Part shown: piece by piece, positions 40,385 through 41,498 of the stretch
How the letters are laid out: each line of letters starts with the position of its first letter
Position numbering within the stretch: position 1 is the stretch's first letter
Assembly: GCF_041248615.1 (NCBI RefSeq)
Contig: NZ_CP158426.1
From: Escherichia coli
GTDB taxonomy: Bacteria > Pseudomonadota > Gammaproteobacteria > Enterobacterales > Enterobacteriaceae
Length of the DNA: 64,000 nucleotides
Direction: 5' to 3' (one strand)
The notes under the pieces: model-generated
Told to the model about the DNA's origin: nothing
The model's input: only the letters and a program-made list of their open reading frames with translations
Database searches by the model: none
Made by a program: the position numbers and the translations under genes

Positions 40385-41170
40385 TTATTGATAGCGGTTA
40401 ACCAAATCTTTTACCATCGCTTTATAGGTCTTTTGCTTAAGTTGTATGATTTGCTGCTCTGTCATATCAGTCGTACTGGCTTCATTCTTGCCGGGAAATG
40501 GTGGAAGCACTTTATATTCATAATTCACCGGCGACCAGGCAGCCCACTCACCTGTAGCTACATCCACCAGCGTGAATCGCACCAGATAGCGCAGTGAGAT
40601 TGTGTTAGTCAGTTTTTCATTTTTATAATCGGACCATACTGTTGATTTCAGTGCAGTGTCATATTTTCCTGTCTGCAACGTATCCTGGTAAACAATAATC
40701 GCTTTCTGATGGCCTTTTGCCGCCACAAAACGTAATGCCTGCATCCAGTTCATATTTTCAGCACTGGCAACATCCTCGTTCTCATTTTTATCTTTGTTTT
40801 TGTTACAAGTCAGAGGCTTTTGTCTGTCCGGGATACCAGAGAATGTGGAAACAGTATAATATTTTCGCATCTCCTCCTGCATAATGGTTTCCGGTGCGCG
40901 GTTGCCGGATTGAACAAGTATTACAGGTGAATTAAGGGGAACGCGGAACTCATCTCCATCAAGCGCAGCTTGAATATCCTCCTCGGATACGGCTAGTGTG
41001 GTTTCATTACCAAATAAGTCTTTGTCTGTTAGTTGCTGCGGAGCGTTTTTATTAAAATTACTTTGTGTGGTTTGAGCTTTTTTCTTCTTTTCATCAATAA
41101 GAGATTCAGAGACACATCCTGCAAGCAGCGAGAATAATACATATATACAACAAACCTTTTTTGAATTCAA
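40385..41170 (-). CDS. yafT: lipoprotein of unknown function (YafT-like)
   Basis: 261-aa ORF with lipobox (VLFSLLAGC); AT-rich; adjacent to tRNA-Asp as yafT is in K-12. Confidence 0.65.
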
Positions 41171-41437
41171 AATCGGACACTCCCTCGTCTGTCATAATCA
41201 TGGTAATGTTTAGCTAACGATTTTTAATTATATACTCCACTTGAATCAGAACAAACAAAAATAATATTAAATATTAATTCATTAAATCAATAGAATAATA
41301 AAAATTATAACATGGAAATATATTTAAATTGAATGATTCGCTGGTATTATTAAATATTAATGAATGGTCAATCATATATAATTACCACATTTACAGCATA
41401 ACAAAATAATTGAACGAAGAATTTGTGGGGTTTAAAT

Positions 41438-41470
41438 ACAAAAAAACCGCAAAATTAAAAATTTTGCGGT
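41438..41470 (-). terminator. rho-independent terminator downstream of tRNA-Asp (aspV)
   Basis: Minus strand accgcaaaat-ttttaa-ttttgcggt hairpin followed by TTTTTTTG. Confidence 0.55.
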
Positions 41471-41498
41471 TCTCTGAACTCATTTTCATGAGTGAATT

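Follow-up and report, generated by a model that had tools for sequence, protein, structure and literature searches.

A conserved lipoprotein gene, yafT, at the tRNA-proximal end of the aspV T6SS island of Escherichia coli and the case for a possible accessory envelope role

The lipoprotein YafT, encoded at the edge of the T6SS island beside aspV in Escherichia coli, may be an accessory envelope lipoprotein tied to this T6SS lineage, a reading to which we give a probability of about 0.5 and in which a physical association of YafT with the machine, or an influence on secretion, is what we infer. Because yafT has been passed on along with the TssA-TssM-VasL(TagA)-Hcp end of the cluster, the most likely role for YafT is that of an accessory partner to this T6SS subtype in the envelope. 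In the mechanism we propose, yafT would be the conserved terminal gene of the aspV T6SS island, and its product would be exported by Sec/Lol to the outer membrane, where its lipid anchor would sit in the inner leaflet and YafT would form a periplasm-facing dock or support for the T6SS machine. The gene would have an AT-rich promoter region of its own, silenced in K-12, and its 3' end would serve as the right-hand homology arm in the exchange of cargo cassettes.

The window, by which we mean the whole stretch of 64,000 nucleotides that was analysed (contig NZ_CP158426.1), carries yafT at 40385-41170 on the minus strand as a coding sequence of 261 aa with a TTG start, defined from the ORF list, the RefSeq annotation of 99.8-100% identical DNA, PF25851 and dN/dS. 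The gene order at the locus is VasL, Hcp, a 309-aa protein, ykfM, yafT (minus strand), tRNA-Asp (minus strand) and dnaQ. To the left of yafT lies a complete T6SS cluster encoding Rhs, VgrG, Hcp, TssB, TssC, TssE, TssF, TssG, Fha, TssJ, TssK, TssL, ClpV, VasI, TssA, TssM and a VasL-domain protein, and to its right lie tRNA-Asp, dnaQ, rnhA, yafS, gloB and mltD. The GC content is 41.2% in the yafT coding sequence, 25.0% in the spacer next to the tRNA, 56% in the T6SS core and 50.7% on the housekeeping side. Identity of YafT with TssJ was considered and rejected, as the PF12790 match in this region belongs to the ORF at 25780-26304, which is the cluster's own TssJ.

The preliminary description of this region had placed a lipoprotein gene between an effector/ykfM module and tRNA-Asp, at the tRNA-proximal edge of a T6SS island, and had tentatively named it yafT. 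That account of the gene and its surroundings holds: the 261-aa ORF carries a lipobox and adjoins tRNA-Asp, synteny at the locus places it at the island edge and genuinely ties it to T6SS clusters, and the name is correct, being the RefSeq name on 99.8-100% identical DNA with PF25851 on identical and related proteins. The AT-rich region of some 330 bp that it noted beside the tRNA measures 328 bp at 25.0% GC, the end that it gave (41497) falling just short of the tRNA, and its statement that K-12 kept yafT after losing the secretion machinery agrees with the K-12-type locus. In precomputed annotation, PF25851 ('YafT') is assigned to the 100%-identical protein (P0001) and to all 120 listed relatives, placing the window protein in this family. 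RefSeq product names for yafT vary between 'lipoprotein YafT', 'aminopeptidase', 'lipoprotein' and 'hypothetical protein'. YafT had no match in NCBIfam or in a copy of Pfam-A without the PF25851 model, a Pfam scan of 84 family members returned just four isolated weak matches, and a PDB sequence profile search gave nothing meaningful. We reject the name 'aminopeptidase' for YafT, since Pfam, NCBIfam and PDB sequence searches gave no match and no peptidase is found among its fold matches; with neither a peptidase domain nor a peptidase fold, this product name is unsupported.

The window allele is a minority one, found in 259 genomes at a DNA identity of at least 99%. Its TTG start codon (41168-41170, minus strand) is replaced by ATG at the same codon in the K-12(-like), O157 and NU14 alleles and may reduce translation of an already silenced gene. 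Selection on yafT is purifying (dN/dS 0.07-0.22), and the frame is intact in 4097 of 4179 E. coli genomes at a coverage of at least 80%. Antisense to the 3' end of yafT, and running over the terminator hairpin beyond it, is an unsupported 102-aa ORF at 40289-40597 (plus strand), probably a spurious one.

The lipoprotein signal is read directly from the translation: residues 1-18 form a signal peptide that leads into an LLAGC lipobox with Cys19 (41114-41170, minus strand). The N-terminus consists of a basic n-region, a hydrophobic core, the lipobox and Cys19, followed by VSE. The lipobox agrees with the pattern [LVI][ASTVI][GAS]C, placing the cysteine at residue 19, and in an alignment this cysteine is kept in at least 90% of 84 family members. 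The residue at position +2 is Val, and not Asp, in the window and Ala, Thr, Ser or Met in relatives. Under the Lol +2 rule, a lipoprotein without Asp at +2 goes to the outer membrane. Judged from these residues, YafT is most likely sorted to the outer membrane by Lol and anchored in its inner leaflet.

An AF2 model of YafT built on an alignment of 84 diverse sequences has a mean pLDDT of 81.9 and a pTM of 0.74; an earlier run with 28 close sequences gave a pLDDT of 56, too uncertain for use. In the model, the signal helix leads into a disordered tether of about 25 residues (approximately 20-45). Two short helices (49-53, 63-70) and a beta-alpha-beta unit (82-110) come next, then a disordered insert (112-140), a helix (142-152), long beta-hairpins (157-221) and a long C-terminal helix (230-260). 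The insert is acidic and lysine-rich, with one conserved free cysteine, Cys122. Over 28 YafT sequences from many genera, 75 positions are invariant, including Cys19, the block 47-70 and Cys122. The model, with its alpha/beta domain, superposes significantly on the LptE/PelC/FlgT/CsgG-type fold, and Foldseek concurs. The proteins matched either are lipoproteins of the outer membrane or form periplasmic modules, and they cap, ring or plug machines that span the envelope; there is no peptidase and no immunity protein among them.

Within E. coli, yafT is present in 4179 of 5426 complete genomes, with one copy in each, and either yafT or the end of the cluster formed by the tssM 3' region, VasL and hcp is present in 4185 of the 5426. 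The closeness of these two counts means that hardly any genome has the T6SS end without yafT. In an evenly spaced sample of the ranking, about 50 of 60 rows (~83%) have both yafT and the T6SS end, while yafT stands alone in nine, mostly K-12 and BL21 derivatives with deletions. An empty aspV site is seen in strain 5-1, where yafV lies directly beside tRNA-Asp and both the T6SS and yafT are absent, indicating that yafT is island DNA and not core genome; this is contrary to one genome paper that treated yafT as core genome (PMC4232414). In K-12-type strains, which lack the T6SS, an ISAs1 remnant abuts a truncated 309-aa gene, followed by ykfM and yafT, and the retention of these two genes is explained by the endpoint of the ISAs1 deletion, which falls inside the effector gene. 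IS1 also recurs at the locus, as an IS1-bounded deletion from tssC into yafT in E. coli EC3 (L012, 6288-7152) and as insertions in or beside yafT in other E. coli strains.

The neighbours that stay with yafT most consistently are the gene for the VasL-domain protein (TagA class; ImpA_N + VasL) and the terminal hcp, at 36889-38801 on the plus strand (Pfam, synteny), which accompany yafT in all Enterobacterales contexts examined; the domain make-up of TagA is taken from PMC6745524. The terminal hcp of the window strain (38319-38801, plus strand) carries a single C-to-T change at 38613 that turns Gln99 (CAG) into an amber codon (stop at 38613-38615) and leaves a fragment of 98 aa. Strain TUM1223 has an hcp that is otherwise identical over these 483 nt and encodes an intact 160-aa protein, and in the window strain this terminal copy has probably lost its activity. 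Another hcp, at 17658-18176, is intact.

Close relatives of YafT, at 65-82% identity, are known from Escherichia albertii, E. fergusonii, Citrobacter, some Salmonella, Enterobacter, Pseudocitrobacter, Lelliottia, Hafnia and Buttiauxella. Wherever a relative with 44% identity or more came with sufficient flanking sequence, which was the case for E. coli, Lelliottia, Hafnia, Salmonella, Superficieibacter and three metagenomic contigs, its gene either converges on the VasL(-Hcp) end of a T6SS cluster or lies beside VgrG-Rhs. In Lelliottia, the order ClpV-VasI-TssA-TssM-VasL-Hcp is followed by a convergent yafT, with citrate-lyase and speF-like genes as flanks, so that yafT sits between speF/DUF554 and the T6SS there and at aspV in E. 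coli, and the clusters occupy different chromosomal sites. The gene lies at the TssM-VasL-Hcp end of the cluster in Hafnia, Superficieibacter, Phytobacter and the three metagenomic contigs (44-49% identity), and beside VgrG-Rhs in Salmonella. Three relatives at 35-41% identity, one in Phytobacter and two in Budvicia, are likewise at a T6SS end; Budvicia aquatica DSM 5075 has two T6SS clusters (L067, L068), and each ends in a separate YafT paralogue with 39-41% identity to the window protein. Conserved linkage with core T6SS genes, in different taxa and at different loci, was found in the Enterobacterales clade only.

Relative to the window proteins, the Lelliottia proteins are 66% (YafT), 71% (VasL), 69% (TssA), 74% (ClpV) and 86% (TssM) identical, and those of Budvicia 39-41% (YafT), 30-32% (VasL) and 48-50% (TssM). 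The identity of YafT tracks that of structural T6SS proteins, standing at 65-75% across genera, about as for TssA, VasL and ClpV.

An exhaustive representative search returned 163 cluster representatives at E<=1e-3. A search for related loci with a 10-sequence YafT alignment showed a large distant clade at 22-31% identity in Verrucomicrobia, Rokubacteria, Mariprofundus, deltaproteobacteria, Budvicia, Leminorella, Pragia and Serratia oryzae. No T6SS gene was found within 10 kb of the distant-clade loci, and a search for a shared neighbour gave none common to all; the upstream genes of about 700 aa in two of its subgroups are unrelated, encoding a P-type ATPase in one and a VIT-VWA protein in the other. 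The lack of a T6SS in the distant clade means that the T6SS link belongs to the Enterobacterales clade and not to the whole family, and, together with the varied neighbours, suggests that the YafT fold has a T6SS-independent ancestral role. Two further relatives at 36-39% identity lie on short contigs with transporters alongside and no T6SS in view.

Two recurring arrangements stand out among the distant loci. In Budvicia, Leminorella and Pragia (L047 6199-10708; L049, L052, L070), a distant YafT-family lipoprotein is encoded last in a conserved same-strand block that also holds a small HMA_2-domain protein, three small uncharacterised proteins and a 689-aa P-type ATPase with HMA_2; this block may be an uncharacterised envelope or metal-related operon. 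The member at the ATPase locus of Budvicia aquatica (L049) is a third, distant family member in that genome. In several Verrucomicrobia MAGs (L018, L019, L020, L027, L037, L039), the YafT-family gene comes directly after a gene for a protein of about 700 aa with VIT and von Willebrand factor A domains, which is on the same strand, about 2.1 kb upstream of the match, with small conserved ORFs before it.

On the other side of yafT from the tRNA, a variable cargo module at 38830-40236 (plus strand; ORFs, hydropathy) consists of the 309-aa effector candidate followed by ykfM (155 aa). The effector candidate has no Pfam or NCBIfam match and, by hydropathy, has a glycine-rich hydrophobic C-terminal region at about 218-266, while YkfM, encoded directly downstream and co-directionally, has three hydrophobic segments. 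By these features the two look like a membrane-targeting effector with its integral-membrane immunity protein, a likely pair that needs no third partner, and immunity to the neighbouring effector likely falls to YkfM. Some part of the module is present in 3084 of 5426 complete E. coli genomes and the full module in 2580, and about 1100 yafT-positive E. coli genomes are entirely without it. The gap between hcp and yafT holds three different genes in O157:H7, one of them for an LprI-family protein, and a DUF4225 cassette in one metagenomic relative. In B2 strain NU14 the cargo is absent and yafT comes directly after hcp; nothing lies between hcp and yafT in Lelliottia, and in another metagenomic relative yafT directly abuts VasL.

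Sliding DNA identity reveals a mosaic 3' end of yafT at 40385-40560 (minus strand), which encodes the last beta-strand, a loop and the C-terminal helix. Over the last ~120-170 nt (two to three 60-nt blocks), O157 and NU14, which have other or no cargo, are 35-75% identical to the window, whereas a K-12-like strain that shares the cargo is 95-100% identical. Because the helix encoded here is conserved as protein, the DNA mosaic looks like a set of recombination breakpoints and not a change in specificity. Breakpoints of cargo-cassette exchange appear to fall inside the yafT 3' end, which looks like the right-hand boundary, or homology arm, of these swaps. The region upstream of yafT (41220-41457) is 57-81% identical to K-12 and O157 and 85-96% identical to NU14. 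Taken with the divergent 3' end, this pattern indicates that the recombination tracts flanking the gene to either side are independent.

The AT-rich spacer with the yafT 5' region extends over 41171-41498 (minus strand) up to tRNA-Asp (GTC), aspV, which ARAGORN places at 41499-41575 on the minus strand and which is the integration landmark of the island. A GAGGGAG Shine-Dalgarno sequence (41180-41186, minus strand) lies 9 nt 5' of the TTG, and a scan with the consensus only gives a promoter-like TTGATT-18-TATTAT at 41290-41261 (minus strand). A terminator scan found an intrinsic terminator hairpin with a T-run just downstream of tRNA-Asp (41441-41475, minus strand). As this rho-independent terminator of the tRNA stands inside the spacer, the yafT promoter must fall within approximately 41171-41440, and the terminator would insulate yafT from transcription of the tRNA. 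At the opposite end, where ykfM and yafT converge, a GC-rich hairpin (40349-40374; terminator scan) is a candidate bidirectional terminator. The yafT locus of K-12 forms an extended protein-occupancy domain that is silent in transcription and silences even an inserted lac promoter (PMC4191405), and its transcriptional propensity is very low (PMC9561378); this silencing fits the 25% GC of the upstream region. An RpoS-holoenzyme SELEX site has been mapped to the yafT gene region (PMC5493296). Within the library searched, a whole-word search for yafT returned mentions of the locus only, and none of them assigns a function or ties YafT to secretion by experiment.

Several lines of evidence favour the accessory role, namely synteny with the T6SS end, the two copies in Budvicia, co-occurrence in E. 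coli, independence from cargo, conservation and fold. It is opposed by the distant clade (22-31%) without T6SS and the two 36-39% relatives beside transporters, by the convergent orientation of yafT towards the cluster, its own candidate promoter and its silence in K-12, by the presence in the cluster of a core lipoprotein, TssJ, and by the fact that linkage at an island edge can also come from hitch-hiking. The main rival sees YafT as a general envelope lipoprotein, like its distant relatives, whose function has nothing to do with the T6SS and whose gene was picked up as a passenger at the edge of an ancestral island and carried since; we regard this as possible but doubtful. The absence of a T6SS link in the wider family, with contexts as varied as a P-type ATPase/HMA_2 operon and a VIT-VWA protein, suits such a passenger, as do the opposite orientation and candidate promoter of yafT and its GC content of 41% against 56% in the T6SS core. 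However, the position beside VasL/Hcp is kept in at least seven genera and at several insertion sites, it is duplicated with each of the two Budvicia clusters, purifying selection on the gene continues, and in E. coli the gene and the T6SS end occur together almost one-to-one, whereas a neutral passenger is expected to be lost or shuffled more often. A bolder form of the accessory role, which we think unlikely, would make YafT a so far unnoticed accessory subunit in the V. cholerae-like T6SS lineage of Enterobacterales that contains TagA(VasL), an outer-membrane lipoprotein, possibly ring-forming like PelC, PqiC or FlgT, that docks or stabilises the envelope-spanning part or the sheath-holding site and whose loss would alter the efficiency or dynamics of firing. 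The most constant neighbour genes also raise the low-probability idea that YafT docks to the VasL domain of TagA, but the hydropathy of TagA gives no clear transmembrane segment above threshold and a C-terminal fragment of TagA is reported to bind cytoplasmic TssA (PMC7545191), both of which weaken it.

The preliminary description had interpreted YafT as a periplasmic immunity protein or as cargo, and, while the lipoprotein, its place at the T6SS edge, its tie to the T6SS and its retention in K-12 all stand, neither immunity to the neighbouring effector nor a cargo role does. Cargo is rejected, as a Sec/Lol lipoprotein signal is unsuited to T6SS cargo. Periplasmic immunity, whether cognate to the neighbouring effector or of a conserved orphan or general kind against periplasm-acting toxins that kin or rivals deliver by T6SS, is improbable in our estimate. 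It would agree with the periplasmic exposure implied by the lipoprotein signal, with the position in a T6SS island beside a cargo hot spot, with retention in K-12 after deletion of the machinery, and with the covariation of the yafT 3' end with cargo type at the DNA level. However, yafT is neither adjacent to the effector gene nor co-transcribed with it, lying on the opposite strand in convergent orientation with ykfM and the hairpin terminator between them, and the two do not co-occur as an effector and its immunity protein would: against 4179 genomes with yafT there are 3084 with the effector/ykfM module, leaving some 1100 yafT-positive genomes without the module, and yafT stays in place with other cargo or none. 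The gene is also highly conserved across genera, single-copy and outside arrays, its variable 3' part is conserved as protein so that the mosaic is a likely recombination breakpoint, and yafT-bearing clusters show no evident conserved effector with a periplasmic action at this end. AF2 and Foldseek match YafT to outer-membrane machine-partner lipoproteins and to no known immunity family, and retention in K-12 is explained by the ISAs1 endpoint within the effector gene. We consider it very improbable, finally, that the ORF is a decaying or non-functional remnant. The weak TTG start of the window allele where others have ATG, the legacy 'aminopeptidase' label, the transcriptionally silent K-12 locus (PMC4191405, PMC9561378) and the nonsense codon in the neighbouring hcp of the window strain could be read that way, but frames intact in 4097 of 4179 genomes with dN/dS of 0.07-0.22, the 75 residues invariant over 28 sequences from many genera and a good Shine-Dalgarno sequence ahead of the TTG argue otherwise, and no peptidase domain or fold was detected.

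Both the gene and its family already have a name and an annotation, and what is added here, namely systematic T6SS linkage, a fold assignment, the move of the immunity role to YkfM and the mosaic 3' end, is useful but modest. A named K-12 'y-gene', whose RefSeq label is often 'aminopeptidase', has its annotation corrected and is assigned to a T6SS island, travelling with the TssM-TagA-Hcp end in several genera, and its 3' end appears to mark the right-hand boundary of cargo-cassette swaps. If the accessory role is true, YafT is a new component of a well-studied machine; if it is false, YafT is an ordinary conserved passenger lipoprotein.

Compared with known systems, the window protein is encoded by the same gene as K-12 YafT (b0217, PF25851), being 94% identical to the K-12-type protein and sharing its length, lipobox and aspV-adjacent locus; it differs in its TTG start, in Val at +2 and in the complete T6SS cluster alongside, of which K-12 has a remnant only. 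With immunity proteins of the Tsi/Tai/Tli type, YafT has in common exposure to the periplasm and a place in a T6SS island near a cargo module but, unlike theirs, its gene neither adjoins an effector gene nor runs in the same direction as one nor co-occurs with one, and YafT is neither polymorphic nor related to them in fold. The lipoproteins LptE, PelC, FlgT, CsgG and PqiC are partners or ring components of envelope-spanning machines, to which YafT is only 6-14% identical in sequence; here the resemblance is one of predicted fold. No partner barrel is known for YafT, and its extra elements are the invariant 47-70 segment, a disordered insert of 30 residues that contains Cys122 and a long helix at the C-terminus. 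TssJ belongs to a different family and fold, YafT having no PF12790 match, yet the two are alike in being lipoproteins coded in the T6SS cluster, TssJ as its core outer-membrane lipoprotein and YafT as one whose place in the outer membrane we infer.
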